Shown here: piece by piece, positions 16,081 through 59,152 of the stretch
Numbering within the stretch: the stretch's first letter is position 1
How the letters are laid out: each line of letters begins with the position of its first letter
Assembly (NCBI GenBank): GCA_018814025.1
Contig: JAHJAM010000002.1
Span: 2,798-66,797 of the forward strand
Direction: 5' to 3'
From: Patescibacteria group bacterium
GTDB taxonomy: Bacteria > Patescibacteriota > Patescibacteriia > UBA9934 > GWF2-40-263
DNA length: 64,000 nucleotides
Position numbers and translations under genes: made by a program
Notes under the pieces: generated by a model
What the model was told of the DNA's origin: nothing
Databases searched by the model: none
What the model saw: only the letters and a program-made list of their open reading frames with translations

Positions 16081-16113
16081 CGAGGTTTTTTACGATCGTA
16101 AAAAACCTCGTAA
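16081..16113. repeat. 33-bp perfect palindrome TACGAGGTTTTTTACGATCGTAAAAAACCTCGTA
   Basis: Perfect dyad with a CGATCG centre. A second copy with a compensatory G-to-A / C-to-T change in the arms lies at 32641-32673. Confidence 0.8.
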
Positions 16114-16134
16114 GAAAGAATTTGCGGTAGTGAT

Positions 16135-17106
16135 CTAGCGGACTCGGCGCGGAATGATTTTTGTCGGTTCCGGCAGAGGATATTGGCAATTGGACGCGGT
16201 GGTGATGAAACGACGCGTGTTGTCAAAGTATTTTTCGTCGCGCAAGTAGATCTGGTTGAGGGCATTGAAGTCTTCGAGCGTGAGTTTGGTGTGTTCGAGC
16301 CAAGAAAGAAAGTTGATCTTACGGTCATTCTCTTCAAGATAACCAATATCGGTCAAGAAAAGCTGGTCGCTTTTCGCTATGGCGCAATAAAAGGCTTCGC
16401 GGTGTTGCCGGCCCGTATCGCTCAGCATAATTTTTTGTTGAAGAAACGGCGTTTCCGGATAGAGTAAAAAACGATCCTTTTCGACCACGATCACTTCAGT
16501 CGCGGTGATGATTCGAGTTCCATCTTCCGAACAAGCAACTGCGGAGTTGAAATCATCACTTGCTTGTTGTCGAATGGTTTTAATTGAGTGCTGGAGTTCA
16601 TTTACCAAGAAAGTTCTGGCTTTGTGTTTTGGATCCGTGCGGTTTTGCCAAGACCAGAGCAACGCGTCAACAATCATGATCGCATTCGGTGTCGCGGGTT
16701 CACCTTTTGAGTTCGGGAAGAAAATCGCTTTTTCGTGCGATGATGTGAAGATGAAGATCGGGACACTTCCAGTCAGGTAGATCTTTGCTTCGTGTTCAAT
16801 CAGGAAATTCCAGAGGGGGCTGAATTTGTTTTGGGTCAGGTTTTCGCGACACCAGAGTTGGTATTGCGAGTGGGCCGGATTGATTGGCACAGCAAATTTC
16901 TTTAGCACATCATAGTTATCTTCTTTGATGATCCAAGAGAGCTGGATGCGGCAATTGTTCCAAAAGGTCGCATTTGGTTGTTCGACGTTCGACTGTTGAA
17001 CGACTATTTGTTCGACGTTATAACAGCCGAAGTTGGTCTCTTCAGCGAAACGATTCCGGACAAAGGCCTCGCGCAACTCTTCGTAGCTTTTTGTGAAAAG
17101 AGCCAT
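16135..17106 (-). CDS. hypothetical protein, paralog B of gene 13604..14227 (with insertions)
   Basis: The N- and C-termini and the segment AVACSEDGTRIITATEVIVV align with paralog A. A strong SD AAGGAG is present. Confidence 0.55.
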   Translation of the reverse strand: MALFTKSYEELREAFVRNRFAEETNFGCYNVEQIVVQQSNVEQPNATFWNNCRIQLSWIIKEDNYDVLKKFAVPINPAHSQYQLWCRENLTQNKFSPLWNFLIEHEAKIYLTGSVPIFIFTSSHEKAIFFPNSKGEPATPNAIMIVDALLWSWQNRTDPKHKARTFLVNELQHSIKTIRQQASDDFNSAVACSEDGTRIITATEVIVVEKDRFLLYPETPFLQQKIMLSDTGRQHREAFYCAIAKSDQLFLTDIGYLEENDRKINFLSWLEHTKLTLEDFNALNQIYLRDEKYFDNTRRFITTASNCQYPLPEPTKIIPRRVR

Positions 17107-17234
17107 GATCTTACTCCTTCTACGGAGGGTGTTCGCTGGTTTCTAGGCCTTGAACACCGGTTAATCGAATGGGCAGAACATCTACCCAAAGGACACGTTA
17201 AGTTAGCCAGTTTTGTAGGATTTGTCAAGGAGAG

Positions 17235-17262
17235 GGTAGGTAGGGAAATAGTAGGTAGGGTA
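17235..17262. repeat. dispersed motif GGTAGGTAGGGAAATAGTAGGTAGGGTAA
   Basis: One copy of the GTAGGTAGGG repeat family; other copies are listed in the findings. Confidence 0.7.
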
Positions 17263-17329
17263 AAAGGGAGTTATCCACAGATAAAAATATTTTCTTGATT
17301 TTAAAGGGAAAAATTAGTGGCTTAAAGTG

Positions 17330-17358
17330 TTGACGCATGTATGATGGTGGGATATGAT
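17330..17358 (+). promoter_or_regulatory. mraZ promoter (TTGACG-17-TATGAT)
   Basis: Near-consensus -35 and -10 hexamers with 17-nt spacing, about 110 nt upstream of mraZ. Confidence 0.5.
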
Positions 17359-17382
17359 GGAGGCATGTGGAAATAAGTGGGG
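17343..17382 (+). promoter_or_regulatory. putative MraZ operator: four (G/A)TGG(G/A) direct repeats at 10-bp periodicity
   Basis: gatggtggg / gatatgatgga / ggcatgtgga / aataagtgggg, each unit ending at 17350, 17360, 17370 and 17380. E. coli MraZ binds GTGGG repeats with 10-bp spacing that overlap its own promoter. Confidence 0.4.
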
Positions 17383-17468
17383 ATTGGCCGGACTGGATCT
17401 GGCTGATGCTCACTTTTTATTTTTTAAGTGTTCCACTTCATTTTTCCTGAGTTGAATCACAGTTCAAT

Positions 17469-17900
17469 ATGTTTATTGGAGAATACAAACATAACATTGA
17501 CGAGAAAGGACGCTTAGCCATCCCGGTTAAGTTTCGTTCTGACTTGGCCAAAGGAGCTGTGGTGACGCGAGGTCTGGATACTTCGCTTTTCCTGTTCCCC
17601 ATGGAGGAGTGGGACAAGTTGGCTCAGAAATTAGCTAATTTGCCCCTGGGGCAGTCCAACAGCCGTGCCATCGCCCGACTCATGCTTGCGGGTGCTATGG
17701 ACGTAGAAATGGACAAACAGGGAAGGGTAGTAATCCCGGAGTACCTGCGAGAATACGCGGGTATGAAAAAAACAGTCGTTTTAGCCGGACTATATAACCG
17801 ACTAGAGATCTGGGAACAAAGTAAATGGGAAGAGTACAAAGCCGCAACCGAAAAGGACGCGGAAGAAATCGCGGAAACATTAGGAGAGCTAGGAATTTAA
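17469..17900 (+). CDS. mraZ: transcriptional regulator MraZ
   Basis: MFIGEYKHNIDEKGRLAIP and the duplicated DXXXR-type halves; 143 aa. Confidence 0.9.
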   Translation: MFIGEYKHNIDEKGRLAIPVKFRSDLAKGAVVTRGLDTSLFLFPMEEWDKLAQKLANLPLGQSNSRAIARLMLAGAMDVEMDKQGRVVIPEYLREYAGMKKTVVLAGLYNRLEIWEQSKWEEYKAATEKDAEEIAETLGELGI

Positions 17901-17923
17901 TTCGAACATAGGGTAACGCGATT

Positions 17924-18043
17924 ATCACACATCAGCTTGTCGATGTGTGATAGACGTGCAACCTTACGTGAGCCAAAGCGAGAGAAAAGAAAAGTTTACT
18001 TTTCTTTTCCGAGCGCGGCGAACGCAAAGGGCGTGAGCCCTTT
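17924..18043 (+). promoter_or_regulatory. three consecutive stem-loops in the mraZ-rsmH intergenic region
   Basis: First, TATCACACATC-N7-GATGTGTGATA, an 11-bp perfect stem. Second, AGAAAAGAAAAGT-TT-ACTTTTCTTTTC. Third, AAAGGGC-GTGA-GCCCTTT. Confidence 0.4.
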
Positions 18044-18055
18044 ATCCAATAAGGT

Positions 18056-18934
18056 ATGATTGCGCACAAACCGGTTTTGCTCGAGGAAGTGATTGCTCTT
18101 CTTGAGCCAAAATCGAACCAGAGTTTTATTGACGCCACAGTGGGGCAGGGTGGGCATGCTCACGAGATATTGAGCCATACCCATCCTGATGGGCGTCTGC
18201 TGGGCATCGACCGCGATGCTCCGAATCTCAACATCGCCAAAAAGCGCCTTAAGCCTTTTGGTGCGCGAGCGGTTCTGGTTCAGGACAGCTACGCCAACGT
18301 AAGCACCCACGCTTATGCTCATAAATTTTCTCAAGTTGATGCCATCCTGGTGGATCTGGGTTTCTCCTCGGCTCACATTGATGATCCGAAGCGAGGCTTC
18401 AGTTTTCAACAGGAAGGGCCTTTAGACATGAGGTATGACACGCGGCAGAAGTTAACGGCCGCGGAGATCGTCAACACTTGGGATGAAGATGAGCTCGCTC
18501 GGGTCTTTAGAAAATTAGGAGAGGAAACTTATGCTCGTCAGATTGCCAAAGCAATCGTGAAAGCCCGTGTGCTAGGGGACTTTCAGACCACGACCCAGCT
18601 CGCTGAGCTGATTGTCAAAAATAAACGTCGTGGCGGAAAGATCCATCCGGCAACGCAGGTTTTCCAGGCTTTGCGCATGACCGTGAATCGTGAGCTGGAG
18701 GAACTCGAGAAGGCTCTACCGGAGTTTGTCTCGCTTCTTCGGCCAGGAGGACGGCTGGCGGTCATATCCTTCCATTCCTTGGAGGACAGAATTATTAAAC
18801 AGTTCTTTGCGGATAAACAAAAAAACAAAGAAATAAAGATCCAAACTAAAAGACCAATCACTGCGACTTTGTCAGAAATAAAAAGCAATCCTCGGGCGCG
18901 CAGCGCCAAGCTACGAGTCGCGGAAACAGTATAA
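18056..18934 (+). CDS. rsmH: 16S rRNA (cytosine1402-N4)-methyltransferase
   Basis: HKPVLLEEVI...DATVGQGGHA, a SAM-binding motif typical of RsmH/MraW. Confidence 0.9.
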   Translation: MIAHKPVLLEEVIALLEPKSNQSFIDATVGQGGHAHEILSHTHPDGRLLGIDRDAPNLNIAKKRLKPFGARAVLVQDSYANVSTHAYAHKFSQVDAILVDLGFSSAHIDDPKRGFSFQQEGPLDMRYDTRQKLTAAEIVNTWDEDELARVFRKLGEETYARQIAKAIVKARVLGDFQTTTQLAELIVKNKRRGGKIHPATQVFQALRMTVNRELEELEKALPEFVSLLRPGGRLAVISFHSLEDRIIKQFFADKQKNKEIKIQTKRPITATLSEIKSNPRARSAKLRVAETV

Positions 18935-18978
18935 GGGTCAGGCCAAATATCCTTAAATGGATCTCTGCATCAGGAAGG

Positions 18979-19000
18979 GTAGAAAGTAGAAAGTAGAAAG
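18979..19000. repeat. TAGAAAG x3 tandem 7-mer array
   Basis: gtagaaagtagaaagtagaaag. A related array overlaps the uvrB stop at 6231-6275. Confidence 0.7.
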
Positions 19001-19149
19001 TTTACTAGCTTTATACTCCACCTATTGCAGAGGTCCCCACTACTCAAAAACAAAAATACTACGGCCTGATACGCAGGCCCGTGACGGCCAAAATAGCCGC
19101 ACGGGCCATGCCCTTATAACGGGGTGATTGGCAAAACAAAAACCAAATT

Positions 19150-19503
19150 ATGTCTCCTTTTGCTCAAACAATGTTTGCGCCGTTATCGAATCGGCGCAGC
19201 TTAAAAACCCTCCTGGACAACAACATCGTCATGATTAACGTTGTCAGTCTGGTCTTGGTGCTGGCCGTGATTCTGATGTATATCTTTCAGGTGAACGGGG
19301 CCGTGACCAAGGGTTATCAAATGCGCGATTTGGAGACGCGAATTGAATCATTAACGTTAGAGAATCAGAAACTGGAAGTGGTGGCGCGGGAAGCGCAATC
19401 ATTGGATAACGTGAAAAATTCCGTGAAGATGCTGGGATTCGTACCCGCGGAAGTGCCGACCTATACGAATGGTTCCGAACCAGCGTTGGCATTAGCGGAA
19501 TAG
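19150..19503 (+). CDS. FtsL-like cell division protein (single TM plus coiled coil)
   Basis: Its position after mraZ-rsmH, the bitopic topology and the leucine-rich heptads support the call. A terminator ctcgggg-atga-cccgag+T6 lies at 19530-19552. Confidence 0.5.
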   Translation: MSPFAQTMFAPLSNRRSLKTLLDNNIVMINVVSLVLVLAVILMYIFQVNGAVTKGYQMRDLETRIESLTLENQKLEVVAREAQSLDNVKNSVKMLGFVPAEVPTYTNGSEPALALAE

Positions 19504-19625
19504 GAGCGGGAGCTAGAGGAGCTAATTACTCGGGGATGACCCGAGTTTTTTAATTAGTTCCCTTAGCTCCTTTAACTCTTCCGGCTCTTCTAGCTCCCGT
19601 GCATTTCGTGATATAATTTTCTTAC

Positions 19626-20192
19626 ATGCTTCAAGCAACGATTGTGGACACGCAACAACTAATTGACGCCGTCCAATCCATCAACTGGATGCAGCCGTCA
19701 TGGGATGTTTTTATTATCATCTTTTTTATCATGGCGTCATTGGTATATGGAATTTCTTTGGGCCGCGACCGGATTTTTGTCACTTTGGTTTCACTCTACA
19801 TGGGTTTGGCCGTGGTCAAGTACGTGCCTTACATTACCGAGTTTAACGCTTCCATCACCATTCAAGACGGACTGGCTATGAACGTTTCGGTTTTTCTGGG
19901 CGTGTTTATCATTCTGTTTTTTCTTTTGTCCCAGTCGGCTTTGGTTAAAACTTTGGGATCGGGCTTAAATCAGGGCTCGATGATCACGGTTTTACTGTTT
20001 TCTTTTTTGCAGACCGGATTGTTGATTAGCGTTACTCTTTCGTTTTTTCCGCAAGACATTTCGCAGTGGATTTCGCCGCTCACGCAAACCATGTTTTTGA
20101 GCGATCCGGCTAAAGCCTTTTGGATTATCACGCCGATCGTGGCCATGATGATTATTGGGGGCGTGGATCGGGATCGGCGCGACCGCTATTGA
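19626..20192 (+). CDS. CvpA-like integral membrane protein (putative)
   Basis: 188 aa with 4-5 TM segments, resembling the colicin V production protein family in size and topology. The assignment is weak. Confidence 0.35.
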   Translation: MLQATIVDTQQLIDAVQSINWMQPSWDVFIIIFFIMASLVYGISLGRDRIFVTLVSLYMGLAVVKYVPYITEFNASITIQDGLAMNVSVFLGVFIILFFLLSQSALVKTLGSGLNQGSMITVLLFSFLQTGLLISVTLSFFPQDISQWISPLTQTMFLSDPAKAFWIITPIVAMMIIGGVDRDRRDRY

Positions 20193-20239
20193 TGTAACCT
20201 TTGGCTTGCTTTAGGGTAAGAGGATAAGCAGTCAAAGAT

Positions 20240-20716
20240 GTGAAGCAAAAAGAATTTGATAAATTTTACCGTCGGAACATTGACCGTATCTATCGATACG
20301 TGTTTTTTCGTATTGGGCAAAATCATGAAATTGCGGAAGATTTGGTGAGTGAGATTTTTTTAAAGGCTTTAAATAAGTTTGATGATTATGATGAAAAAAA
20401 GTCCAAATCAGCTTGGATATACACAATCGCGCATAATCATTTGGTAAACTATTATCGAGATAAGAAAGTTGAGATTGATTTTGACGATTTGATCATGGAT
20501 TCCCGTTTGCACGGGAATGACGGCAGGGGAGAGGTTTTTTTGGAGATTGAGGGGATTTTAGCAAAATTATCAAAAGAAGATCGTCGGCTTGTAACCATGA
20601 AGTACTTGGAAGGGTATAAGTATTCAGAGATGGCGGAGATTTTGGGGCGTCAGGCCAACGCGCTTAAAGTCGCTACCCATCGCTCACTTAAAACAATTAA
20701 AGACGGTTTGCGTTAA
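20240..20716 (+). CDS. ECF-type RNA polymerase sigma factor
   Basis: Sigma70 region 2 (IYRYVFFRIGQNHEIAEDLVSEIFLKA) and region 4 (EDRRLVTMKYLEGYKYSEMAEILG). Confidence 0.8.
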   Translation: MKQKEFDKFYRRNIDRIYRYVFFRIGQNHEIAEDLVSEIFLKALNKFDDYDEKKSKSAWIYTIAHNHLVNYYRDKKVEIDFDDLIMDSRLHGNDGRGEVFLEIEGILAKLSKEDRRLVTMKYLEGYKYSEMAEILGRQANALKVATHRSLKTIKDGLR

Positions 20717-20717
20717 T

Positions 20718-21623
20718 ATGTTTATCCCAAAACAATTTAAACAACTTCGGGACAACGCTTGCCCGTCGCCGGAGTTTAAAAATCAGCTCTTGGCTAAACT
20801 TAATCAAGAAACATCTATGACTAATCAATCTTGGGTGCGACGTTTCGTGCCCGCGTTCGCCGCCGCCTTGGTACTCTTTTTTGCCCTAGGTACCGGAGCC
20901 TACGCTTACGAAAGCCCAAGCGTAACCGAAGGCCATCCGTTGCATTTTTTAAAGAATAATTTTGAAAAGTTCGAAGAAAGGTTTGCGGACAGTCCGGAAA
21001 AGCAAGCTCAGTTTCATGCGAAAATGATGGAGCGTCGCATGGGCGAGGCTGAACATTTGGGCTGGGGCAGTGAGGAAGCGCAAACCCTTTTGGAAGCAGC
21101 GGCCGCGGAAATGGATTTATCCGTTGAAGAATTGGTTAATGATTTGAAAGATCCAGAAACTCGATCCCAGATTATGGATCAATTAGCCGAACAGGGTTTT
21201 GAATTCGCCGAAGCTTGGCAAGAGCATCGGGAGCAATACGGTCAAGGCAAGGCCAAAGGATTTGGCATCGGCCAACACATGATTGATTTCGATGATGATG
21301 CAACTGACGACATCCAAGCGCCGGTAATGGGCCGCGGTCTGGGTTGGGGGTTGGGCGATGATATCCAGGAATTGCGATTGGAAATATTTAACGATGAAGA
21401 CTTGTCTGTTGAAGAAAAGCGAGAGACTTTTCATGAAGCGGTTAGGGGCTTAATTGAAGAAAAAGTTGAAGTCAAGAAAGCAGAATTGGATGATGAGGAA
21501 GAGGATGAGGAGCTGATTGATGATGACGTTGAAAATCCGGATGAGGAGGCTGACGGTGGGAGCGAAGATAAGAAAGATGACAACGGCGATGACAAGAATG
21601 AGAGCGAAGAAGAAGATGACTAA
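20718..21623 (+). CDS. putative membrane-anchored anti-sigma factor with highly acidic C-terminal tail
   Basis: The gene lies immediately downstream of the ECF sigma factor (1-nt gap). It has a single TM (AFAAALVLFFALGTGA) and a C-terminal D/E-rich tail. A terminator lies at 21632-21660. Confidence 0.35.
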   Translation: MFIPKQFKQLRDNACPSPEFKNQLLAKLNQETSMTNQSWVRRFVPAFAAALVLFFALGTGAYAYESPSVTEGHPLHFLKNNFEKFEERFADSPEKQAQFHAKMMERRMGEAEHLGWGSEEAQTLLEAAAAEMDLSVEELVNDLKDPETRSQIMDQLAEQGFEFAEAWQEHREQYGQGKAKGFGIGQHMIDFDDDATDDIQAPVMGRGLGWGLGDDIQELRLEIFNDEDLSVEEKRETFHEAVRGLIEEKVEVKKAELDDEEEDEELIDDDVENPDEEADGGSEDKKDDNGDDKNESEEEDD

Positions 21624-21689
21624 GCATAAATACCACCCGGCATTGGCCGGGTGGTTTTTTGATGGGACGCGTGTTATATTAGTCTCAAT

Positions 21690-23063
21690 ATGATCAAACT
21701 CTACAACACATTATCTCGGGAAAAGGAGGAATTTAAGCCGACCAAAGATAAGGAAGTCGGGATCTACGCTTGCGGGCCCACGGTTTATTTCTTTGCGCAT
21801 ATCGGCAATTTTCGGACCTATGTTTTTGAAGATGTTTTGCGCCGGGTGCTTGAGTTTAACGGATACGCGGTCAAATTCGTGATGAATATCACGGACGTGG
21901 GGCATCTGACTGATGACGCGGACGCGGGCGAGGATAAAATGCTTTTGGCCATGCGGCGCGAGGGCAAAAGTGCGCAAGAGATCGCGGAATTTTATACGCA
22001 AGCCTTCATGGCGGATGTGAAAAAACTGAATATCAAGCCCGCGGATGAATATCCGCGCGCGACTGATCACATTCAAGAACAGATCGAGTTGATTAAGAAA
22101 TTGGAGGAAAAAGGCTTTACTTACCAAACCACGGATGGGGTTTATTTTGATACTTCTAAATTGCCGGATTACGGGCGCTTGTCCGGTCAAAAGTCGGAAG
22201 AAAAAGAAGCGGGCGCGCGCGTGGCCATGGGCGAGAAGAAAAATCCGACTGATTTTGCCTTGTGGAAGTTTTCATCTGAAAGCGAACAGCGATTAATGGA
22301 ATGGGAATCGCCTTGGGGCAAGGGTTTCCCGGGCTGGCATATTGAATGTTCGGCCATGAGCGCCAAGTATTTGGGCATCCCTTTTGATATTCATTTGGGC
22401 GGAATTGACCATGTGCCGGTTCACCATGAGAATGAGATTGCGCAAACTCAAGCGGCGGAAGGTAAGCTCTTGGCCAATTATTGGGTGCATAGCGACTTTT
22501 TGACCGTGGATGGCGGCAAGATGAGCAAGTCTTTGGGCAATATCTATACGATTTCGGATTTGGCGGCGAAGGGCATCGATCCGCTGGCTTTCCGGTATTT
22601 CTGTTTGGGCGCGCATTATCGCACCAAGTTAAACTTTACCACCGAGTCCATTAACGCGGCGCAAAACGCTCTGAATAATTTGCGCGATGCGGTTCGGGAT
22701 TGGGATTCGCCTTCGGGCGGTTGCGCGGCTTATGAGCAGGAGTTTGCGGCGGCGCTGGATGATGATTTGAATCTGCCCGAGGCTTTGGCCGTGGTTTGGC
22801 AGATGAAAGATTCGGCGAGTGCGAGTTCGGCTAAGGCCGCGAGTTTGCTCAAGTTCGATCAGGTTTTGGGCTTAGAGCTTGATCAATACGTGGCCCAGCC
22901 TTTGGCCGTGCCCGAGGACGTGAAATCTTTGGTTAAAGATCGCGAGCGGGCGCGCGAGGAAAAGGATTTCGAGCGCGCGGATCAGCTGCGCGAGCAAATT
23001 GAGAAAAAAGGATTTACGGTGGATGATCAAGCGGCCGGTTCAAAAATTAATCAAAAACATTAA
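21690..23063 (+). CDS. cysS: cysteine--tRNA ligase
   Basis: HIGNFRT (HIGH motif), KMSKSLGN, zinc-binding Cys. Confidence 0.95.
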   Translation: MIKLYNTLSREKEEFKPTKDKEVGIYACGPTVYFFAHIGNFRTYVFEDVLRRVLEFNGYAVKFVMNITDVGHLTDDADAGEDKMLLAMRREGKSAQEIAEFYTQAFMADVKKLNIKPADEYPRATDHIQEQIELIKKLEEKGFTYQTTDGVYFDTSKLPDYGRLSGQKSEEKEAGARVAMGEKKNPTDFALWKFSSESEQRLMEWESPWGKGFPGWHIECSAMSAKYLGIPFDIHLGGIDHVPVHHENEIAQTQAAEGKLLANYWVHSDFLTVDGGKMSKSLGNIYTISDLAAKGIDPLAFRYFCLGAHYRTKLNFTTESINAAQNALNNLRDAVRDWDSPSGGCAAYEQEFAAALDDDLNLPEALAVVWQMKDSASASSAKAASLLKFDQVLGLELDQYVAQPLAVPEDVKSLVKDRERAREEKDFERADQLREQIEKKGFTVDDQAAGSKINQKH

Positions 23064-31995: not shown

Positions 31996-32027
31996 AAACT
32001 CCACCCTAAAATCGGGTGGAGTTTTGT
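31996..32027 (+). terminator. rho-independent terminator
   Basis: aaactccaccc-taaaat-cgggtggagtttt. Confidence 0.5.
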
Positions 32028-32091
32028 GTTTAACTTGAGCTGAGAAGATTAACGATAATTGTTACGATCGGATAAAAGTCCGTAAGGAAAT

Positions 32092-32637
32092 ATGAAGAAA
32101 TTTTTAGCACAAATTACTTTGATTGGAACGGCTTCAAAACACGTTGCTGATGATTTGTTAGTTGAGTTCGATCGTTGTTTGTATGGAGTAAATAATATTC
32201 GATCCGTAACACTAGCTTGTAACCCGCAAGGTGTTGAAATTTTCAAAGAGATTAAGGGTGCGAAAGAGCGAAGAAGAATTAAAGAGGCCTTTCAATCTCT
32301 AAAACAAAAGAGGCTGATAAAAATTGAGAAGCAGGCAAAAAAAATATCAATCTCATTAACAAGAAAAGGGAAATTGCAATCTTTAAGACACCAAATTTTA
32401 ACCGAGAATAAACAGCTGTCAGAAGATGATGTTTGTGTGATTGTTTTTGATATTCCAGAGCATGTTAGAACAATACGGGATCAGTTGCGTCACTTTTTGA
32501 AAAAAGCCGGTTGTACTCAATTACAGCGGAGTGTCTGGACTACAACAATAGATATTATTCGACCTCTCAAAGCTCTATTAAAGTCTATGAAAGCAGAGAA
32601 ATGGATTCATGTTTTTCAAGGTCAGTCGGTATTTTGA
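32092..32637 (+). CDS. orphan protein with central winged-helix and C-terminal Cas2/VapD-like domain
   Basis: LIKIEKQAKKISISLTRKGK has a wing-like wHTH pattern. VCVIVFDIPEHVRTIRDQLRHFLKKAGCTQLQRSVW resembles the Cas2 core (YDI...R.RL...L...G.R.Q.SVF). The gene is AT-rich and no CRISPR array is nearby. Confidence 0.4.
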   Translation: MKKFLAQITLIGTASKHVADDLLVEFDRCLYGVNNIRSVTLACNPQGVEIFKEIKGAKERRRIKEAFQSLKQKRLIKIEKQAKKISISLTRKGKLQSLRHQILTENKQLSEDDVCVIVFDIPEHVRTIRDQLRHFLKKAGCTQLQRSVWTTTIDIIRPLKALLKSMKAEKWIHVFQGQSVF

Positions 32638-32640: not shown

Positions 32641-32673
32641 TACGAAGTTTTTTACGATCGTAAAAAACTTCGT
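32641..32673. repeat. 33-bp perfect palindrome TACGAAGTTTTTTACGATCGTAAAAAACTTCGTA
   Basis: Second copy of the 16081 palindrome with compensatory arm changes. It begins 4 nt after the stop of gene 32092..32637. Confidence 0.8.
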
Positions 32674-32786
32674 ACGCCGTGCAGTCGGCGTTTGATTCTT
32701 CATGCATTCGAGGGTTCGGGATTTTAAGATCGAATGTTTTTCTGTTATGATGCTTTTGACAAGGCTGAGAGCCAAAGCTAGAAAAC

Positions 32787-32811
32787 CACCCGATTCGGGT
32801 GGTTTTGTGAT
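32787..32811 (-). terminator. terminator of rimK-like gene
   Basis: aaaaccacccg-attc-gggtggtttt. Confidence 0.5.
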
Positions 32812-45036: not shown

Positions 45037-45043
45037 ATATACA

Positions 45044-45130
45044 GACCCCCTCCCAGCCTCCCCCTTGGTAAGGGGGAGGAGTAACCGAGGGTTCCCCTTC
45101 CTTACCAAGGAGGGGGTTAGGGGGAGGTCT
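45044..45130. repeat. GC-rich double hairpin / imperfect inverted repeat between gatC and gatA
   Basis: The two elements are CCCCCTTggtAAGGGGGAGG and CCCCTTCCTTaccAAGGAGGGGG. The outer arms gaccccctcccagcctcc and ggagggggttagggggaggtc pair to give a cruciform-capable element. Confidence 0.6.
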
Positions 45131-49082: not shown

Positions 49083-49187
49083 AAAAATTCTCTGTTGAAA
49101 GCAGGGGATTTTTTATTTAGGTCAACGGCATTGTTTACGATCGTGAGTTTTACCGTCGATGAGGTATGTATGTTAGAATAAGAATAC

Positions 49188-49541
49188 ATGAAGCAATTAA
49201 CACCCGAGGAACAAGAAGTGATTCTGAATAAAGGCACGGAGCCGGCCGGATCCGGTCAATATGATCGGTTCTTTGAGTCCGGGACTTATAAGTGCAAACA
49301 ATGCGGTGCGGAATTGTATCGGTCGGATGATAAGTTTGACGCGCACTGCGGGTGGCCGAGTTTTGATCAGGAGATCGCGGGTGCAGTCAAGCGCCTGCCG
49401 GATGCGGACGGCCTGCGCACGGAAATTCAATGTACCAAGTGCGGCGCGCATTTGGGACATGTTTTTGAAGGCGAACATATGACTGATAAGAATGTCAGGT
49501 ATTGTGTGAATTCCGTGAGTCTTGATTTCGAGAAGAAATAA
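49188..49541 (+). CDS. msrB: peptide-methionine (R)-S-oxide reductase
   Basis: Two CxxC zinc motifs (CKQCGAEL, CTKCGAHL) and the active-site HLGHVF..E. Confidence 0.9.
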   Translation: MKQLTPEEQEVILNKGTEPAGSGQYDRFFESGTYKCKQCGAELYRSDDKFDAHCGWPSFDQEIAGAVKRLPDADGLRTEIQCTKCGAHLGHVFEGEHMTDKNVRYCVNSVSLDFEKK

Positions 49542-49542
49542 T

Positions 49543-50067
49543 ATGGTTCAAGTAATTGTTTTGGGCGGCGGATGCTTTTGGTGTACGGAAGCCGTATTTC
49601 AAAAGATAAAGGGGGTAACGAAAGTTGAATCTGGTTATGCGGGCGGGGAAGCGGCCAATCCCACTTATGAACAAGTTTCCACGGGCGAAACCGGGCACGC
49701 GGAATGCGTGCGCGTGGAATACGACGCCGATCAAGTCGGCTTGAATAAAATTTTGGATGTTTTTTTCGCCGTTCATGATCCCACGACCTTAAATCGACAA
49801 GGGAATGATGTGGGTACGCAGTATCGCTCAATTATTTTTTGGACTGAGCCGGAACAAGAAAAGGCAATTAAAGATTATTTGATTAAGGTTCAGGATGAGT
49901 TTAAAGATCCGGTGGTGACTGAAGTCGAAAAACTAGATATGTTTTATCCGGCCGAGGACTATCACGAGGATTATTACAACCAGAACAAAAGCAAGATGTA
50001 TTGCCGGCTGGTGATCTCGCCCAAGCTGAAGAAGGTTGAAGAGAAATTTGCCGATTGGCAAAAGTAA
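49543..50067 (+). CDS. msrA: peptide-methionine (S)-S-oxide reductase
   Basis: GGGCFWCTE active-site motif. The start was re-set to an ATG 2 nt after the msrB stop. Confidence 0.9.
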   Translation: MVQVIVLGGGCFWCTEAVFQKIKGVTKVESGYAGGEAANPTYEQVSTGETGHAECVRVEYDADQVGLNKILDVFFAVHDPTTLNRQGNDVGTQYRSIIFWTEPEQEKAIKDYLIKVQDEFKDPVVTEVEKLDMFYPAEDYHEDYYNQNKSKMYCRLVISPKLKKVEEKFADWQK

Positions 50068-51887: not shown

Positions 51888-51889
51888 AG

Positions 51890-52684: not shown

Positions 52685-52763
52685 AATATAAATATTATAA
52701 CATAGGAAGTAGGGGAGAAGTAGGTGGGGTGAAAATAAAATATCTGATATACTTATTATCAAT

Positions 52764-53720
52764 ATGCTGACAAATATACTTGTATTGATTGCCGGATTTA
52801 TTCTTTTAATTCGCGGCGCGGATTATTTGGTGAAGGGCGCGGCTTCCATGGCGCGGCGCCTGGGCGTGCGCGCGTTTGTGGTGGGTTTGACGGTGGTGGC
52901 TTTCGGCACTTCGGCGCCCGAGCTGGTAGTTAACGTTTTGTCCGCCACTTCCGGATCAACCGGTTTGGCTTTGGGCAATGTTTTGGGTTCCAATTTGGCA
53001 AATATCCTTTTGATTCTTGGAATTGCCGCGATCATTTCGCCCGTGATTTTGCATCGGGGAACGGTTTGGAAAGAATTACCGCTGTTGCTTTTGGCTTCAG
53101 TGCTGGTCGTGGTCTTGGGCAGCGATATTTTTTTTGACGGCTCTTTTAGCAACATTATTTCTCGGATTGACGGAATCGTTCTGCTTTCTTTTTTTGTCAT
53201 CTTTTTATATTACACGCACGGTGCCAGCAAAGGGCAATCTGATGAACATGAACAAATTGATGTGTATGATAAGAAGAGAACCGCTATTTATTTGATCGGC
53301 GGCTTGGCGGGTTTAGCTTTGGGCGGCAAATTCATTGTGGATTCGGCTGTGTTTATCGCTCAGGCTTTCAGCGTATCCGAACATGTGATCGGGGCCACGA
53401 TTGTGGCCGTGGGCACTTCGCTGCCGGAATTGGCCACCACTATCGTGGCGGCCATAAAAAAACACACGGACATTGCCGTGGGCAATGTGGTGGGCTCCAA
53501 TTTGTTCAACGTTTTTTTCGTGCTGGGCACGACCGTGGTTATTCGGCCTTTAGCTTTTGACCACGCGGCCTGGCAGGATGCAATGATCGTTTTGGGCATT
53601 ACTTTGATTCTCTTTATGTCTTTGTTCGTGGGCAAGCGGCATCATTTTGAAAAATGGCAAGGCGTCACATTTGTGGGGATGTATCTGGCGTATATCGTGT
53701 TTTCAGTTTTTAGGGGGTAG
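52764..53720 (+). CDS. Ca2+/cation antiporter (CaCA family, YrbG-like)
   Basis: Two alpha-repeat motifs, GTSAPELVVNV and GTSLPELATTIVAA. The stop TAG is embedded in GGTAGGTAGGGAA. Confidence 0.85.
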   Translation: MLTNILVLIAGFILLIRGADYLVKGAASMARRLGVRAFVVGLTVVAFGTSAPELVVNVLSATSGSTGLALGNVLGSNLANILLILGIAAIISPVILHRGTVWKELPLLLLASVLVVVLGSDIFFDGSFSNIISRIDGIVLLSFFVIFLYYTHGASKGQSDEHEQIDVYDKKRTAIYLIGGLAGLALGGKFIVDSAVFIAQAFSVSEHVIGATIVAVGTSLPELATTIVAAIKKHTDIAVGNVVGSNLFNVFFVLGTTVVIRPLAFDHAAWQDAMIVLGITLILFMSLFVGKRHHFEKWQGVTFVGMYLAYIVFSVFRG

Positions 53721-53810
53721 GTAGGGAAATCGTCGGTAGGGCAAAGGGGCCTCGCGGCCTCTTTTTGTGTCTTGAATATTCAGGCTAAACAAGGCAAGCT
53801 AGTGATACCT

Positions 53811-55598
53811 ATGGATCAAAAAGATGAGATCAAACAAAAAGTGGATGTGGTGGAGCTGATTTCCGAATATGTTCAGCTCAAACCCGCGGGCAGTAATTCG
53901 TTTAAGGCCTGTTGCCCGTTTCATACGGAAAAGACGCCGTCTTTTCAGGTTTCCGGAGAAAAGCAAATTTGGAAATGCTTCGGCTGCGGCGAGGGTGGGG
54001 ACTGTTTTGAGTTTTTGATGAAAATGGAAGGCTTGGATTTTCCCGAAGCCTTGCGGCACTTAGGCAATCGGGTGGGGATTGAGGTTAAACGTTTCACCTC
54101 GGAAACCAGCAATGTCAGCCAGCGCTTGTCAGCCATGAATGATCTGGCCAGCAAGTTTTATCAAAAAGTGTTATTGGATTCTCCGGCCGCGCAAGCAGCC
54201 CGGGATTATCTGACCAAACGCGGTATCGGCCAGGAATTGCGAGATAAGTTCGGCATCGGGTTTGCCCCGGATGCCTGGGAAACCTTGTCGACATTTTTGT
54301 TGAAGAGGGGATTTTCCGCCAGCGAGGGCGTGCAAGCCGGTTTGATGATGAATCGGCGCCAGGGCAGCGGCGTGATTGATCGGTTTCGCAATCGCATAAT
54401 GATCTCTTTGCGCGACGCGCACGGCAACACCGTGGGTTTTACCGGCCGGCAAATGCCGGGCGATGAACACGGGCCCAAATACATGAATTCGCCTGAGACC
54501 CCAATTTATCATAAAGGAAAATTGTTGTTCGGTTTGGATTTGGCCAAGCGAGCGATTAAAGAGCGGGGAAGCGTAATTATTGTGGAAGGAAATTTAGACG
54601 TGGTGGCTTCGCATAAAGCCGGGGTGGAGAACGTGGTGGCTTCATCCGGCACGGCTTTGACCCAAGATCAACTGACATTTTTGAAACGCTACACCAAGAC
54701 CATTGTTTTTTCTTTTGATGCGGACGCGGCCGGTTTTAACGCGGCTTACAAGGGCATTAATCTGGCCCGGGAATTGGATTTAGACGTCCGAGTAGTGGTT
54801 TTACCCAAGGAGGCGGGCAAGGATCCGGATGAGGCGGTTCAAAAAGATCCGGGCATTTGGCAGCGGGCCGCGGCCAGTACCAAGCCGATCATGCAATATT
54901 TTATCGATCAAGCCGTGGCCGGCAAGAATTTAGATAATGTGGATGATAAAAAAGCCATGGCCGCGTTTTTATTGCCGGAGCTGGCTAAAATTAGCGATTT
55001 GGTGGAACGGGAACATTGGCTGCAACTAATTAGTGATTTATTGCGGACGGATATGGGAGTTTTGCGCCTAGCCGTGGGGCGCACGCCGCAAAAATCGGTG
55101 GAAAAACCGGTTGAGAAAACCCAGGCGCCGCCGGCTAAGTTATCAAAAACTCAACAGGCCGAGGAATATATTATCGGCTGTTTTATTCAGGATCAGGCTT
55201 ATCGCAGTCAAATCATTAAGGAATTGGAGGCCGAACATCTTTCCTCTGATTTGTTGAAGAAACTTTACAAAGAATTGGTTTCGCTATATAATCAGCCCGA
55301 ATCAGAAACCTCTTTACAAAAATCATTTTATTGGCGTGTACGCGATCAACTCGAAAAATCTGCGGATAATCAAACCTTGATTCCGCTTCTTGACACAATT
55401 AGTCTTCGAGGCGAACAAATGGTCGCAAATTTATCACCCAACGAGGTTTCCCGACAATTGAAGCAACTTTTGCAAATAATAATTTCCGCGGACGTGAAGG
55501 AACGGCGCGGAGATTTAGCTGCCCGGATTCGCCAGGCCGAGAGCCGGGGCGATCAACAAGCCGTGCAGCGCTTAATCGCTGAATACAATGAGCTCTAA
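53811..55598 (+). CDS. dnaG: DNA primase
   Basis: Zinc ribbon CCPFHTEKTPSF, and a TOPRIM domain with EGNLDVV. Confidence 0.9.
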   Translation: MDQKDEIKQKVDVVELISEYVQLKPAGSNSFKACCPFHTEKTPSFQVSGEKQIWKCFGCGEGGDCFEFLMKMEGLDFPEALRHLGNRVGIEVKRFTSETSNVSQRLSAMNDLASKFYQKVLLDSPAAQAARDYLTKRGIGQELRDKFGIGFAPDAWETLSTFLLKRGFSASEGVQAGLMMNRRQGSGVIDRFRNRIMISLRDAHGNTVGFTGRQMPGDEHGPKYMNSPETPIYHKGKLLFGLDLAKRAIKERGSVIIVEGNLDVVASHKAGVENVVASSGTALTQDQLTFLKRYTKTIVFSFDADAAGFNAAYKGINLARELDLDVRVVVLPKEAGKDPDEAVQKDPGIWQRAAASTKPIMQYFIDQAVAGKNLDNVDDKKAMAAFLLPELAKISDLVEREHWLQLISDLLRTDMGVLRLAVGRTPQKSVEKPVEKTQAPPAKLSKTQQAEEYIIGCFIQDQAYRSQIIKELEAEHLSSDLLKKLYKELVSLYNQPESETSLQKSFYWRVRDQLEKSADNQTLIPLLDTISLRGEQMVANLSPNEVSRQLKQLLQIIISADVKERRGDLAARIRQAESRGDQQAVQRLIAEYNEL

Positions 55599-55644
55599 CC
55601 AATTCCTATAGTTAAAAGAGGTCTTGCTCGTTGTTTTTGTTTTT

Positions 55645-56907
55645 ATGTCAAAAGATATTAAGAAGTCCGGCAAAGCCGGAGCCGGCTCCGCTGGAAAATC
55701 AGCAAAAAAGTGGAAACCTTCAGTTAAGCATGGTTCGGCCAAGCGGCCGAGGCATCAGGGGGGGAAGTCCGGGAAAGTCGGAAAAAAAGTGGTTAAAAAA
55801 GAACGCTATGCGCGCGCTTTGCCGCCAGCTCAGTCAGTGATTGACCGGCTGTTGACCAAAGGGGCGTCTCGCGGCTTCGTGACCGAGAACGAGGTGCTGT
55901 TTGCTTTTCCCGATGTCGAAGATTACATGAAAGTTTTTGATGATTTTTTGGATGAATTGGAACGGATTGGCGTACACTTTGTGGAAATGAAAGAAGGTAT
56001 CTTGGGCCGTGAGCAAGATCGAGATGACGTATACGATAAAATCCGCGTCAGCCGAGACAAGAAACGATCTGATATTCCGGAAATCAGTCAAGATTCGATT
56101 CAAATGTATTTGCGGGAAATCGGCAAAATTCCATTGTTAACCGGCGAAGAAGAAGTGGCTTTGGCTAAACGCAAAGAACGCAATGAAAAAGAAGCTGAGC
56201 GCCGTTTAATCGAAGCGAACTTGCGTTTGGTGGTTTCCATTGCCAAAAAGTTTGTGGGTAAGCAAATGTCTTTGTTGGATTTAATTCAAGAAGGCAACAT
56301 CGGCTTGTTCCGAGCGGTTAAAAAGTTCGAATATCGCAAAGGCTATAAGTTTTCCACTTATGCGACCTGGTGGATTCGCCAGGCCATTACCCGGGCTTTG
56401 GCTGACCAGTCGCGAACTATTCGCATTCCCGTGCATATGGTGGAAACCATTAACCGCTTCATGCAGATCGAACGCCAATTGATTCAAGACTTGGGCCGCG
56501 AGCCTCTGCCCGAGGAAATTGCCGCGGAAATGAGTGAAACCATTGAAAAGGTTTTGCATATCCGCAAGATTTCCCAAGATACAGTGTCGCTGGAAACTTC
56601 AGTGGGTGATGATGACGAAGATTCCAAGCTGGAAGACTTTATCGAGGATACTAAGTCGATTTCACCGGATCGAGCAGCCGCGCGCGAATTATTGAAGGAC
56701 TATGTGCACGAAGGCATGAAGGATTTGAGTCCGCGCGAGCAAAAGATTCTGGAAATGCGATTTGGTCTGACTGACGGCGTAAGCCATACCTTGGAAGAAG
56801 TGGGTAAGGAGTTTGATGTGACGCGCGAGCGCATTCGGCAAATTGAAGCAAAAGCCTTAGAAAAGATTCAAGCGCACCAGATTATTGGGAAGTTAAGGGA
56901 TTATTGA
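55645..56907 (+). CDS. rpoD: RNA polymerase sigma factor RpoD
   Basis: Regions 1.2 through 4 ([11 protein letters not shown], the [10 protein letters not shown] region 2, and [12 protein letters not shown] region 3). The start is ambiguous: the alternatives are TTG 55624 and ATG 55645. Confidence 0.9.
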
Positions 56908-56936
56908 AAAACAGGCCTTCGGGCCTGTTTTTTGGT
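56908..56936 (+). terminator. rho-independent terminator
   Basis: aaaaacaggccttcgggcctgtttttt. Confidence 0.6.
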
Positions 56937-57060
56937 ATGCAACCATTTTGTTTTAAATGCGATATACTATATGCACAGCGAAAGAATTAATGCAGACAAA
57001 GCACATGAAGCATGAGGTGTGAAAGGTGGGGTATCATCATGATGCGTCACGTTTCACGCT

Positions 57061-57708
57061 ATGTGCTCAAACAAACATATGGAAAATGAGGAGGTAATTG
57101 TCCTTGAAGCCAAAACCAATCCCGAGGCTTTCGGGCGGCTATACGACATGTATTATCAGCCAATTTTTGCTTTTGTGTTGAGCCGGATCGGAAATGTTGA
57201 GGTTTCAAAAGACATTTGCAGCGAAACTTTTTTTCAGGCTCTAAAGAACATTTCTAAATACAAGCCCAAAGGCCGCCCCTTTAAATCATGGCTGTTTGCC
57301 ATTGCCGTGGCTCAGGTGGGGAATTACTATCGCAAACGCTCTAAAATGTTGGCTATCACGATCGATGAATGTCCGGAATTGGTGGCCGCCGATATTTATC
57401 AACCTGATTTCAGTGCCATCGAAGATGAAACGGAATTGGAAATCAAGGAACAAGTTGTGCAATTGCGCCGATTGATGGGGCAGTTGAATCAAAAACAGCA
57501 AACAATTTTGACTTTGCGTTATTTTTCTCACATGACGATTCCGGAAATATCGCAAGTTATCAAAATGAAGGAAGGAACGATTAAATCACATTTGCATCGG
57601 GCACTGAAGAAATTGCACGTATTAATGACCGAAGAAGATCTAAAAAACGAATATGACTCAGCGGGAGCCACTCAATCTCGAACAGCTTTTGGAGTGTCTG
57701 GGGTCTAA
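57061..57708 (+). CDS. ECF-type sigma factor (second copy)
   Basis: Sigma70 region 2 (FGRLYDMYYQPIFAFVLSRIG...FF) and region 4 (LTLRYFSHMTIPEISQVIKMKEGTIKSHLHRAL). Confidence 0.75.
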   Translation: MCSNKHMENEEVIVLEAKTNPEAFGRLYDMYYQPIFAFVLSRIGNVEVSKDICSETFFQALKNISKYKPKGRPFKSWLFAIAVAQVGNYYRKRSKMLAITIDECPELVAADIYQPDFSAIEDETELEIKEQVVQLRRLMGQLNQKQQTILTLRYFSHMTIPEISQVIKMKEGTIKSHLHRALKKLHVLMTEEDLKNEYDSAGATQSRTAFGVSGV

Positions 57709-58066
57709 CGAGACTCCGGGCGATTCTCATCATCGATACGCGCTTCGGCGGGCCCTGTTGAAATCTCGCTGCTTCGAGGTCAATCAAATTACGGCTAAGT
57801 GGCTGAGATTGTTTACTTTAACTACTTCGGCCGTGGCCGGCGGAGCCGTGGCCGTGGCTTTTGTGCTGGTGGTGCAAACAACTTTAACCATGGATATCGA
57901 AGATCGTTCGCATACAGCCAGAAATTCATTAGCCAGTGAGAATCGGAATCTGCGCCCCATGGAATTAATCAATCAAATGAAAGTGGCGGAAATCAATGAG
58001 ATGGTTCCTTATGATGATTTGCGAAAGGTTTTTATCAAAGATATTGATTTGGCTTTTACTCGATAA
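57653..58066 (+). CDS. putative anti-sigma factor or membrane protein downstream of ECF sigma
   Basis: It overlaps the sigma gene by 56 nt in another frame. It has one TM (LTTSAVAGGAVAVAFVLVV), and the start is uncertain. Confidence 0.3.
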   Translation: MTQREPLNLEQLLECLGSNETPGDSHHRYALRRALLKSRCFEVNQITAKWLRLFTLTTSAVAGGAVAVAFVLVVQTTLTMDIEDRSHTARNSLASENRNLRPMELINQMKVAEINEMVPYDDLRKVFIKDIDLAFTR

Positions 58067-58112
58067 ATCCAGGTTAACGACGTCCATCCGCCTTACTTAA
58101 GGCGGATTTTGG

Positions 58113-58832
58113 ATGCTTGACAAATCCGCGTTTGCGTGCCTCAATAGGCAGGTTCCGAACCCGGAGGATGCAATGGTTGCAGCAACAAGGGATTCAGGAC
58201 TCGCGGCTTTGGATCAACGGATGGAAGAATGTTCTCTGGCTATTCGTCGTTTTGACCGTAAGATTAGCCAAGCTAAGCTCGCGACTCTGGTCGGACGGCT
58301 GCGCCCGGTCATGAAATCATTGGTGCAAGAAAGTTTTTTTCGGCGCGACGCCAGCCGGCCTGATTTAGCGGAACTGGGCTTGGCTTTGGCCTCAATCTTA
58401 GAAAAGCCGGTGCGTAAGATTATCCCGGTGTCAGCCAGGCACGGTCTCGTCTCATCCGAAGGCGAAAATTTTGGTGGACCGTGCGAGGACGCGGCCATCT
58501 GGAAAACCAAGCTCTATCAGATTTACGCCAAGCACGAGATGTGGCTTTGGCCGCTGATCAGCAACCATGACAGCCTGCACTGCGGCTATGAAGGGCTGCG
58601 GCGTCTGTTCCTTAATGAAATCAGTAGACAAGCGCCAAATCGTCTGGAAGCCATGCTGCATGAGACCGCGGATGCCATGGTTTGGTCCATTGATTTTTAT
58701 CTGGCCTTCGCCTTGGCCAACAATCAGCGCTGTCTGGATTATTTCGGACGATTGATCCAGCAGTTCCCGGCCGCGGTGCCAGTGCGCGAGCGGCGTAACC
58801 GTTCCGGCGAGTGGTATGTGATCGTCCGATAA
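58113..58832 (+). CDS. hypothetical protein (GC-rich)
   Basis: 239-aa ORF flanked by hairpin terminators at 58091-58118 and 58837-58870. It is more GC-rich than its surroundings. Confidence 0.4.
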   Translation: MLDKSAFACLNRQVPNPEDAMVAATRDSGLAALDQRMEECSLAIRRFDRKISQAKLATLVGRLRPVMKSLVQESFFRRDASRPDLAELGLALASILEKPVRKIIPVSARHGLVSSEGENFGGPCEDAAIWKTKLYQIYAKHEMWLWPLISNHDSLHCGYEGLRRLFLNEISRQAPNRLEAMLHETADAMVWSIDFYLAFALANNQRCLDYFGRLIQQFPAAVPVRERRNRSGEWYVIVR

Positions 58833-58870
58833 CTCAGGCCCTGGGAAATCCCGGGGCTTTTTTGTTTGTT

Positions 58871-59120
58871 CCGCGAATATGTTATAGTTGAAGCAGCTCC
58901 TCATGACGCTGAATTTGGGCTAAATACTTGCCTAGAGCTTGGAGCCGCGTCGACCGTGGTTGGCGCGTGAGAGCTCAGCAGAGAAGCAGATTTCTATCGA
59001 TACTTCGTAAGAACTATCGAGCGAATGAAGTGCCCTTCGGGGTGTTCTCAATTATCATCTAGCCAAGTATCAGCGCGTGTGGAGTTTAAAAAACACCCTC
59101 GGTGACGAGGGTGTTTTTCA
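58871..59120 (+). ncRNA. candidate small RNA (~220-250 nt) between two terminators
   Basis: The region has no ORF on either strand. An upstream TTTGTT-16-TATAGT candidate promoter is present. There is an internal GCCC-TTCG-GGG(T) hairpin, and a terminator aaaaaacaccctcg-gtga-cgagggtgttttt lies at 59088-59120. Confidence 0.25.
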
Positions 59121-59152
59121 TTCACATATGATGCGATCGCATCATATGTGAA
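59121..59152. repeat. 32-bp perfect palindrome TTCACATATGATGCGATCGCATCATATGTGAA
   Basis: Perfect dyad with a GCGATCGC core (HIP1-like octamer), immediately after a terminator. Confidence 0.8.

Follow-up and report, generated by a model that had tools for sequence, protein, structure and literature searches.

Long perfect palindromes centred on CGATCG and a neighbouring regulator-like gene were analysed in a 64,000-nt stretch of DNA (hereafter the window; 49% G+C) from a metagenome-assembled genome (MAG) of the Patescibacteria, or Candidate Phyla Radiation (CPR). The gene, located at 32092-32637 on the plus strand, encodes a protein of 181 aa composed of a probable N-terminal winged helix and a Cas2-like PaaX_M domain. 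Judged from its sequence, the product is a mini-PaaX, that is, a protein with the architecture of the regulator PaaX without the effector domain. Members of this protein family are accompanied by long lineage-specific palindromes, and we regard the pairing of protein and palindrome as nearly certain. We also propose, with moderate confidence, that the palindromes at 16079-16112 and 32641-32674 and the related sites at 32051-32084 and 49125-49156 are double-stranded DNA operators of dimeric mini-PaaX, which would thus be an autoregulating repressor of the PaaX type.

For a test of the pairing from the protein side, seven loci (L106-L112; all loci are given L numbers) holding nine family genes were fetched by protein identity alone. 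All nine genes were found to be flanked, upstream as well as downstream, by one lineage-specific dyad of 34-40 bp. The dyad centres among family genes were ACGATCGT, ACGGCCGT (L107 gene 2, L109, L110 and L111 gene 2) or AGCT (L112). The dyad of L106 is GACCGCGATTTCTACGATCGTAGAAATCGCGGTC, present in three copies. In L106 and in L108 alike, no CGATCG occurs in 20 kb outside the flanking or orphan copies. The two sites of L111 gene 1 (CTTCCTCGTGATTTTAACGA/TCGTTAAAATCACGAGGAAG and TTTCCTCGTCTTTTTAACGA/TCGTTAAAAAGACGAGGAAA) are both perfect over 40 bp and show three mirrored differences. The longest exact word common to the two 150-nt flanks measured 29, 16, 24, 25, 9, 14, 18, 11 and 11 nt for the nine family genes, with a median of 16 nt against 9 nt in 126 control genes. 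Words of at least 14 nt were present in six of the nine family genes and in 3/126 controls, one of these controls being a next-door gene that shares the same element. In total, the unbiased loci (143 kb) contained 18 gene-linked and four orphan copies. Orphans are present in the window, L106, L111 and L112.

Searches from the motif side led to the same family. An exact scan of 185,579 species genomes with T6ACGATCGTA6 returned eight matches, five of them in CPR MAGs, where the 20-mer is nested in perfect palindromes of 26-46 bp with differing outer arms. A scan of metagenomes with T5ACGATCGTA5 gave about 100 loci with a bimodal distribution of palindrome lengths: 58, 19 and 4 cases at 18, 20 and 22 bp form the tail expected by chance, and a further 22 cases lie at 24-46 bp. 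Additional long perfect palindromes on the same contigs have the centre ACGATCGT in 5/13 cases, compared with an expectation of 1 in 256. No conserved neighbouring gene was seen at first around the first CPR matches, and the link appeared only when tblastn was run with the window protein. With this 181-aa query, family genes were detected beside palindromes in seven of the loci fetched by T5ACGATCGTA5 (L016, L017, L045, L047, L072, L079 and L103), most of them with one copy upstream and one 0-24 nt past the stop codon; no downstream copy was seen at L016, and the contig of L103 ends too soon.

The window has just three perfect palindromes of at least 20 bp, every one centred on CGATCG. Palindrome 1 (16079-16112, TACGAGGTTTTTTACGATCGTAAAAAACCTCGTA) and palindrome 2 (32641-32674, TACGAAGTTTTTTACGATCGTAAAAAACTTCGTA) are perfect over 34 bp and 32/34 identical, their sole difference being G/A at arm position 6, mirrored as C/T in the opposite arm. 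Palindrome 3 (59119-59154, CATTCACATATGATGCGATCGCATCATATGTGAATG, centre GCGATCGC) is perfect over 36 bp. Perfect palindromes of at least 34 bp are expected by chance about 4e-6 times in 64 kb (64000 x 4^-17), and dyads with at least 15/20 matching pairs number four in the window against 0.1 in shuffles. An earlier note on this DNA had recognized all three palindromes and the mirrored change, and these observations are borne out. The limits that it gave are corrected here from 33 to 34 bp for the first two and from 32 bp (59121-59152) to 36 bp for the third. Its statement that both similar copies lie just downstream of accessory genes holds for palindrome 2, which starts 3 nt past the stop codon of the 32092-32637 gene as the downstream member of the bracketing pair. 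It fails for palindrome 1, an orphan copy situated upstream of the gene called paralog B in that note (15607-16032, minus strand; tautomerase-like, 141 aa) and 22 nt downstream of the stop codon (16135) of a minus-strand gene for a 323-aa protein (16135-17106). Palindrome 2 is followed by a small terminator-like hairpin (32674-32691) and then by a bidirectional terminator (32782-32806). Palindrome 3 stands between the stop codon (59157) of a minus-strand gene for a 120-aa protein and a canonical bidirectional terminator (59089-59118); it belongs to the same structural class, but in the motif search it did not fit ACG-N9...N9-CGT.

Palindrome 2 was also found in the NCBI assembly GCA_018822945.1, which differs by 1 SNP in 12 kb. 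SRR2540949, assembled independently by Logan, contains it as well, on a contig (L010) that breaks inside the palindrome at window position 32672. Its presence in two independent assemblies of the same population disposes of the concern that it might be an artefact of assembly or contig joining. Long perfect palindromes break k-mer assemblies, so that such elements are probably under-represented or placed at contig ends in short-read MAGs.

When the motif ACG-N9-ACGATCG-N10-CGT, i.e. ACG-N9-ACGATCGT-N9-CGT, was searched in the window, four sites without mismatch were obtained (16080, 32052, 32642 and 49125) against 0.05 expected. The site at 32051-32084 (AACGATAATTGTTACGATCGGATAAAAGTCCGTA) is a degenerate copy that overlaps the core promoter of the mini-PaaX gene and is a candidate autoregulatory operator. 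Its dyad centre lies 24 nt before the ATG, and it aligns with the other copies of the window and with both copies of L105, a locus carrying an orthologue of 76% identity. The half-site that had been noted at 32068-32080 is real; its position is 32062-32072, and it is the centre of this full copy. A promoter-like sequence (TTAACT-18-GATAAT, 32030-32059) overlaps the copy. The fourth site (49125-49156, ACGGCATTGTTTACGATCGTGAGTTTTACCGT) matches without mismatch on both strands, is symmetric at the centre and outer triplets only, and lies upstream of msrB-msrA (49188-49541 and 49522-50067; SelR/MsrB and PMSR/MsrA), and to its right, at a distance of about 18 nt, follows a -10-like box, TTAGAAT. 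In L105, an imperfect 40-bp version (17/20 pairs) is found directly past the stop codon, at the position of palindrome 2, and the upstream copy has the full TTACGATCGTAA about 25 nt before the ATG. All six sites of the window and L105 keep the outer ACG, the centre ACGATCG(T) and the outer CGT, the outer triplets being about 26 bp apart. Of 16 family genes, eight have the dyad centre 24-32 nt ahead of the ATG. A -10 box often closes the right arm of the upstream copy, a few nucleotides from the start codon (TGTTATAAT in L108 and TGGTATAAT in L112), and in L072 TATAAT follows the dyad by 8 nt. The closeness of these boxes to the start codons implies very short leaders.

The mini-PaaX gene is annotated by NCBI as 'CRISPR-associated endonuclease Cas2', and its neighbours are a Na+/H+ exchanger and RimK/Dus. 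The protein matches Pfam PF20803 PaaX_M at 1.9e-13 (50.7 bits, cutoff 24), and this 'PaaX central Cas2-like domain' was matched by 9/9 aligned homologues (best 3e-23). The TIGR01573 cas2 model was matched by all nine homologues and the TIGR02277 PaaX regulator model by seven. The effector (phenylacetyl-CoA) domain PaaX_C was matched by none of nine members, and the window protein ends after the Cas2-like domain. No Pfam winged-helix or winged helix-turn-helix (wHTH) domain was matched by the window protein or its homologues. The AlphaFold2 model (pLDDT, the predicted local distance difference test score, 73) has a helical N-terminal region with a beta-hairpin wing (residues 50-89, moderate pLDDT), after which comes a ferredoxin-like domain. 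The best full-length fold match in the PDB, by Foldseek, was E. coli PaaX (8a39, probability 0.98, E 9e-3), and the next were many Cas2 structures, for the C-terminal domain. The Asp of FDIPE and several Arg in the next helix are invariant in the family. Neither a CRISPR array (window, Tandem Repeats Finder) nor cas1 (near the gene in the window and in nine homologous loci) was found, which indicates that the Cas2 label is a domain-level misannotation.

A profile search recovered 632 homologues, which, where named, belong to Patescibacteria, Parcubacteria and Nealson-, Pace- and Wildermuthbacteria, and an exhaustive search gave 4,261 clusters (50% identity) at E<=1e-10. The public names of these proteins are 'CRISPR-associated endonuclease Cas2', 'PaaX' or hypothetical. 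Family genes occupy positions of conserved synteny, beside pilins/prepilin peptidase (L106 and L111), DNA ligase/FtsW (L109 and L111) and DegT/FemAB-FtsQ (L107 and L112). Several paralogues are present per genome, each with its own dyad, and even close paralogues (about 65% identity) differ in dyad centre. Conserved synteny, promoter geometry and a separate dyad for each paralogue fit a family of local, autoregulated repressors.

Further copies were recorded at the comparative loci. Past the gene for a penicillin-binding protein in L112, where a family paralogue stands in the syntenic L107, lies a perfect 40-bp palindrome of the P0101 family (1783-1822). For the G+C-rich stretch of about 480 nt that follows (1840-2320), neither tblastn (family genes) nor Rfam gave a match, and no open reading frame (ORF) is convincing; it could be a non-coding RNA or a decayed gene. 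In L111 (about 16120-16225), short tandem repeats of the type CTTCAA(T/C)CTTCAA directly precede the dyad of family gene 2. In two diverged genomes (L019 1435-1474 and 3740-3785; L063 2992-3019 / L104 2187-2220), a ACGATCGT palindrome marks the junction of a Wzy_C/TPR gene with a convergent GT4 glycosyltransferase gene; the 22-bp core is conserved between the two lineages, and the outer arms differ yet are symmetric. In L019, ACGATCGT palindromes that differ from each other stand on either side of the 698-aa gene. In L078, a perfect 30-bp T6ACGATCGTA6 palindrome (1070-1099) occupies the 47-nt spacer that separates rplJ (L10) from rplL (L7/L12); near-copies with one A:A mismatch are present in L055, L091 and L093. 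In L003, a Leptospirales MAG of 62% G+C, two T5-7ACGATCGTA5-7 palindromes (1612-1633 and 1666-1685) stand 54 bp apart with an acyl-CoA dehydrogenase gene just downstream; by its arrangement, the CGATCG-centred motif may serve as an operator outside the CPR too.

Comparison of copies within families yielded 28 mirrored and 43 single-sided differences. The copies of L111-2 and of L112 agree in the centre and in the outer ATAC/GTAT, and their middle of about 10 bp is almost wholly different yet complementary. L106, L108, L110 and L107-2 show only single-sided decay and conserved asymmetries. Some imperfect sites (L107-2 and L110) are asymmetric in an identical manner in the two copies and in different genomes, which points to readout of the sequence and not mere hairpin potential. 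At L012 and L018, which represent the same locus, a CC/AT dinucleotide difference lengthens the dyad by 2 bp on each side, a kind of change typical of template-switch mutation. The view that the dyad symmetry is under selection is upheld as far as maintenance is concerned, with mirrored changes recurring in other families; selection need not be the sole cause, because symmetrization by template switching gives the same pattern.

The orphan at 16079 was compared with L113, a relative of 82% identity, in which the orthologous spacer is about 32 nt shorter and has neither CGATCG nor any dyad; gap placement by MAFFT and affine-gap alignment was ambiguous, and only the length difference and the missing dyad are relied on. 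The gene-linked copy at 32641 differs from its L105 orthologue at about eight positions. Since the orphan is nearly identical to the gene-linked copy and is missing in L113, it was apparently gained or lost as a unit. No target-site duplication was seen at 16079.

That the palindromes might be binding sites of the adjacent wHTH/Cas2-like protein had been one of several earlier suggestions, and comparative genomics strongly supports it through co-occurrence at every locus examined and upstream copies that overlap the promoter. In the mechanism that we propose, a dimer would bind with its two winged helices on the outer ACG...CGT arms, and something, possibly the Cas2-like dimer core, would contact the conserved centre ACGATCGT. 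The protein would repress its own promoter by occlusion of RNA polymerase, as E. coli PaaX does at Px, and the downstream copy would serve the promoter of the next gene or a repression loop of about 600 bp. The copies at 16079 and 49125 would bring the tautomerase-like gene and msrBA under the control of mini-PaaX. Perfect symmetry and mirrored arm changes might come from selection for a two-fold-symmetric site, from hairpin-templated (template-switch) correction of one arm by the other, or from both. For palindrome 3, the cognate protein is probably a paralogue whose gene lies outside the window.

Several observations weigh against operators as the whole explanation. A copy stands just past the stop codon at nearly every family gene, where a transcription factor needs none; the gene that follows is convergent in the window and in L072, so the downstream copy cannot act there as its promoter. 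About one third of the orphan copies lie between convergent genes, and the GT4/Wzy_C junction copy has been kept in two lineages although no coding-gene promoter is located there. Protein contacts confined to the centre and outer arms leave the variable but exactly symmetric middle of the L111-2 and L112 dyads unexplained. The orphan at 16079 gives the impression of a whole 34-bp unit inserted recently, not of a site that evolved gradually. Finally, the family retains the invariant Asp of the Cas2 fold (FDIPE), which leaves room for a catalytic role.

Such points would be accounted for if the wHTH-Cas2-like protein were a domesticated or selfish nuclease or recombinase that recognizes the hairpin or cruciform form of the palindrome and serves to copy or maintain it, with solo copies dispersing, in the manner of repetitive extragenic palindromic (REP) elements and REP-associated tyrosine transposases (RAYTs). 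The cognate palindrome is present on both sides of the gene in every unbiased locus, as REPs are around RAYT genes; the many perfect palindromes, the 28 mirrored changes and the variable symmetric middle look as if one arm templated the other; and the dyad-extending CC-to-AT change of L012/L018, the near-identical orphan missing at the orthologous site of L113, orphans in convergent 3' regions and the invariant Cas2-type Asp all agree with it. We nevertheless consider this explanation unlikely. Orphans are few relative to gene-linked copies, upstream copies show a clear promoter-operator geometry, several families keep imperfect, sequence-conserved sites, the 16079 insertion has no target-site duplication, and the protein has no HUH (histidine-hydrophobe-histidine) or other known transposase domain, the nuclease activity of Cas2 itself being doubtful. 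The conserved synteny of the family genes, which look vertically inherited, also speaks against it, though the same is true of RAYTs. The more specific proposal that Cas2-fold/winged-helix proteins act enzymatically or structurally on their own hairpin or cruciform palindromes, regenerating perfect dyads and seeding copies, seems to us still less likely. If true, it would constitute a non-HUH analogue of the RAYT-REP system and a free-living case of a Cas2-like protein with a palindromic repeat outside CRISPR.

A role at the RNA level, in which long perfect hairpins of 3' untranslated regions (UTRs) act as stabilizers, RNase III sites or factor-dependent terminators and are possibly bound as RNA by the Cas2-like/wHTH protein, is equally improbable in our judgement. 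All three palindromes of the window lie between a stop codon and a terminator and should therefore be transcribed as 3' UTR; very high stability is predicted for the hairpins (-22.7 to -25.8 kcal/mol, z -6.6 to -8), the apex is conserved and the middle of the stem varies but keeps its complementarity, and some copies are placed between convergent genes or in the rplJ-rplL spacer. On the other hand, the upstream copies overlap the -10 box, so that the transcript of their own gene would not contain them; the site at the msrBA promoter (49125-49156) forms no hairpin; and the stems are AT-rich without a U tail, with canonical terminators alongside. The mismatches on the sense strand show no bias toward G:U-compatible types (16 vs 17), which does not favour a constraint acting on RNA only; two L105 centres in this comparison were mis-set by 1-3 nt, which adds noise and does not create the balance. 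REP/RAYT-like and RNA-hairpin roles are not mutually exclusive with operator function. Very improbable, and largely refuted already by the gene association, is an origin without a dedicated binding protein, either as by-product of a CGATCG-specific methyltransferase, restriction or repair system, as with the highly iterated palindrome HIP1, or through neutral growth of quasi-palindromes by template switching. The centre is indeed the PvuI/HIP1 core CGATCG, palindrome 3 has the full HIP1 octamer GCGATCGC, and mirrored and dinucleotide changes fit template-switch mutation. But the excess of CGATCG is slight (23 in 64 kb, about 16 expected), GCGATCGC occurs twice against about one expected, other families have the centres ACGGCCGT or AGCT, and neither the bracketing of one gene family nor the conserved outer ACG/CGT is explained.

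Some other identities were considered and dropped. The palindromes are not intrinsic terminators: their AT-rich stems are not followed by a T run, the terminator scan called the neighbours at 31996-32024, 32674-32691 and 32782-32806 and not the palindrome, and ordinary terminators of the window are bidirectional with an A-run, a GC stem and a T-run. Of the earlier idea of a REP-like terminator, only the REP analogy (gene flanked by the repeat and dispersed copies, without HUH transposase or GTAG) survives, as a minority alternative. Nothing was found in support of a relic of a restriction-modification or homing system, given the slight enrichment of CGATCG and the rarity of GCGATCGC. The same rarity of the octamer, together with the patescibacterial taxon, led us to reject HIP1 or a cyanobacterial origin, and the lack of array and cas1 to reject a CRISPR link. 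Two arms resemble, by eye, the RYYYAAC/GTTRRRY of integron attC sites, but the likeness does not extend to the copies in general, and an integrase is lacking. Sites of the parS, dif or protelomerase kind fit neither the sequence nor the many dispersed copies. An Rfam scan of the window returned tRNAs only. A literature search gave nothing relevant on the motif, and no paper in the library searched links PaaX-like proteins to CPR or to these palindromes.

Other features were noted in passing. An imperfect 38-bp palindrome of the window (6237-6274, GTAGAGAGTAGAAAGGGAA/TTCACTTTCTACTTTCTAC, 17/20 pairs, GAATTC centre) begins 3 nt past the uvrB stop codon and ends 37 nt before the uvrA start; it may be the site of another regulator. 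The minus-strand genes at 14600-15214 and 15607-16032 encode paralogous small proteins without Pfam match whose internal MPLITV/MTLITI motif resembles the Pro-1 with which tautomerase-superfamily enzymes begin, and the true start of the latter gene is probably an internal ATG near 15984. A C/G-rich inverted repeat with 38-nt arms (76% complementary; AGACCCCCTCCCAGCCTCCCCC...) lies between two ORFs at 45043-45130. The type IV pilus cluster is interrupted by small PDDEXK_3 and GIY-YIG genes (L111 5796-6167 and 7486-7698; L108 3581-3967), which are likely to be small mobile nuclease genes; the PDDEXK_3 gene is flanked by a common 15-mer, GTATATTAGTATCGC.

Gene regulation in CPR bacteria is almost unknown, and few transcription factors have been recognized in such reduced genomes. 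At a clustering threshold of 50% identity, the family described here falls into about 4,300 clusters; genomes carry several paralogues each, beside pilus, cell-division and cell-wall genes. Databases routinely call its members "Cas2" or "hypothetical", and the pairing with palindromes corrects false Cas2 calls. A readable site of 34-40 bp for each paralogue would allow regulons to be predicted directly from sequence and offers defined DNA-protein pairs, and the mirrored changes and insertion polymorphism make a tractable case for the origin and upkeep of symmetry in long bacterial dyads.

Among known systems, PaaX of E. coli and Pseudomonas is close in architecture, with an N-terminal winged helix, probably shared by mini-PaaX, followed by a Cas2-like dimerization domain (PaaX_M, TIGR02277; fold match 8a39). 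E. coli PaaX binds the dyad TGATTC-N27-GAATCA and autorepresses Px by steric hindrance of RNA polymerase (PMC9493321). A long dyad likewise overlaps the mini-PaaX promoter, with outer triplets 26 bp apart compared with N27 in the PaaX operator. Unlike PaaX, mini-PaaX has no PaaX_C (about 180 vs 316 aa) and no associated paa genes; its dyad has a conserved centre (ACGATCGT, ACGGCCGT or AGCT) and is often a perfect palindrome over the whole 34-40 bp; a second copy stands just past the stop codon; and the family, with many paralogues per genome, is centred on Patescibacteria. CRISPR Cas2 shares the C-terminal ferredoxin-like fold and the conserved Asp of the N-terminal strand, whereas in mini-PaaX the domain is fused to a probable winged helix and neither cas1 nor an array is found in the window or nine loci. 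With HIP1 of cyanobacteria the CGATCG/GCGATCGC core is common, but the HIP1 8-mer occurs about once per kb, and here the octamer is found twice in 64 kb and the long dyad is tied to a protein family. Repressors such as LacI (O1-O2) and DeoR (operators about 600 bp apart) act by looping between distant operators. The mini-PaaX gene resembles these in having one candidate operator at the promoter and a second about 600 bp away; it differs in that the second lies beyond the stop codon of the regulator itself, and looping is here a proposal only. The likeness to REP and REPIN (REP doublet forming a hairpin) systems with their RAYTs consists in a single, vertically inherited gene flanked by its own palindromic repeat, in dispersed intergenic copies, often at 3' ends or between convergent genes, and in lineage-specific repeats with compensatory stem changes. 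Mini-PaaX is, however, not a HUH/Y1 transposase, as Pfam and NCBIfam give PaaX_M, Cas2 and PaaX matches only, and the repeats have no GTAG/CTAC foot and no bulged imperfect hairpin, many of them being perfect palindromes. They also number four to five per 64 kb, compared with hundreds of REPs per genome, and their upstream copies double as candidate promoter-operators.

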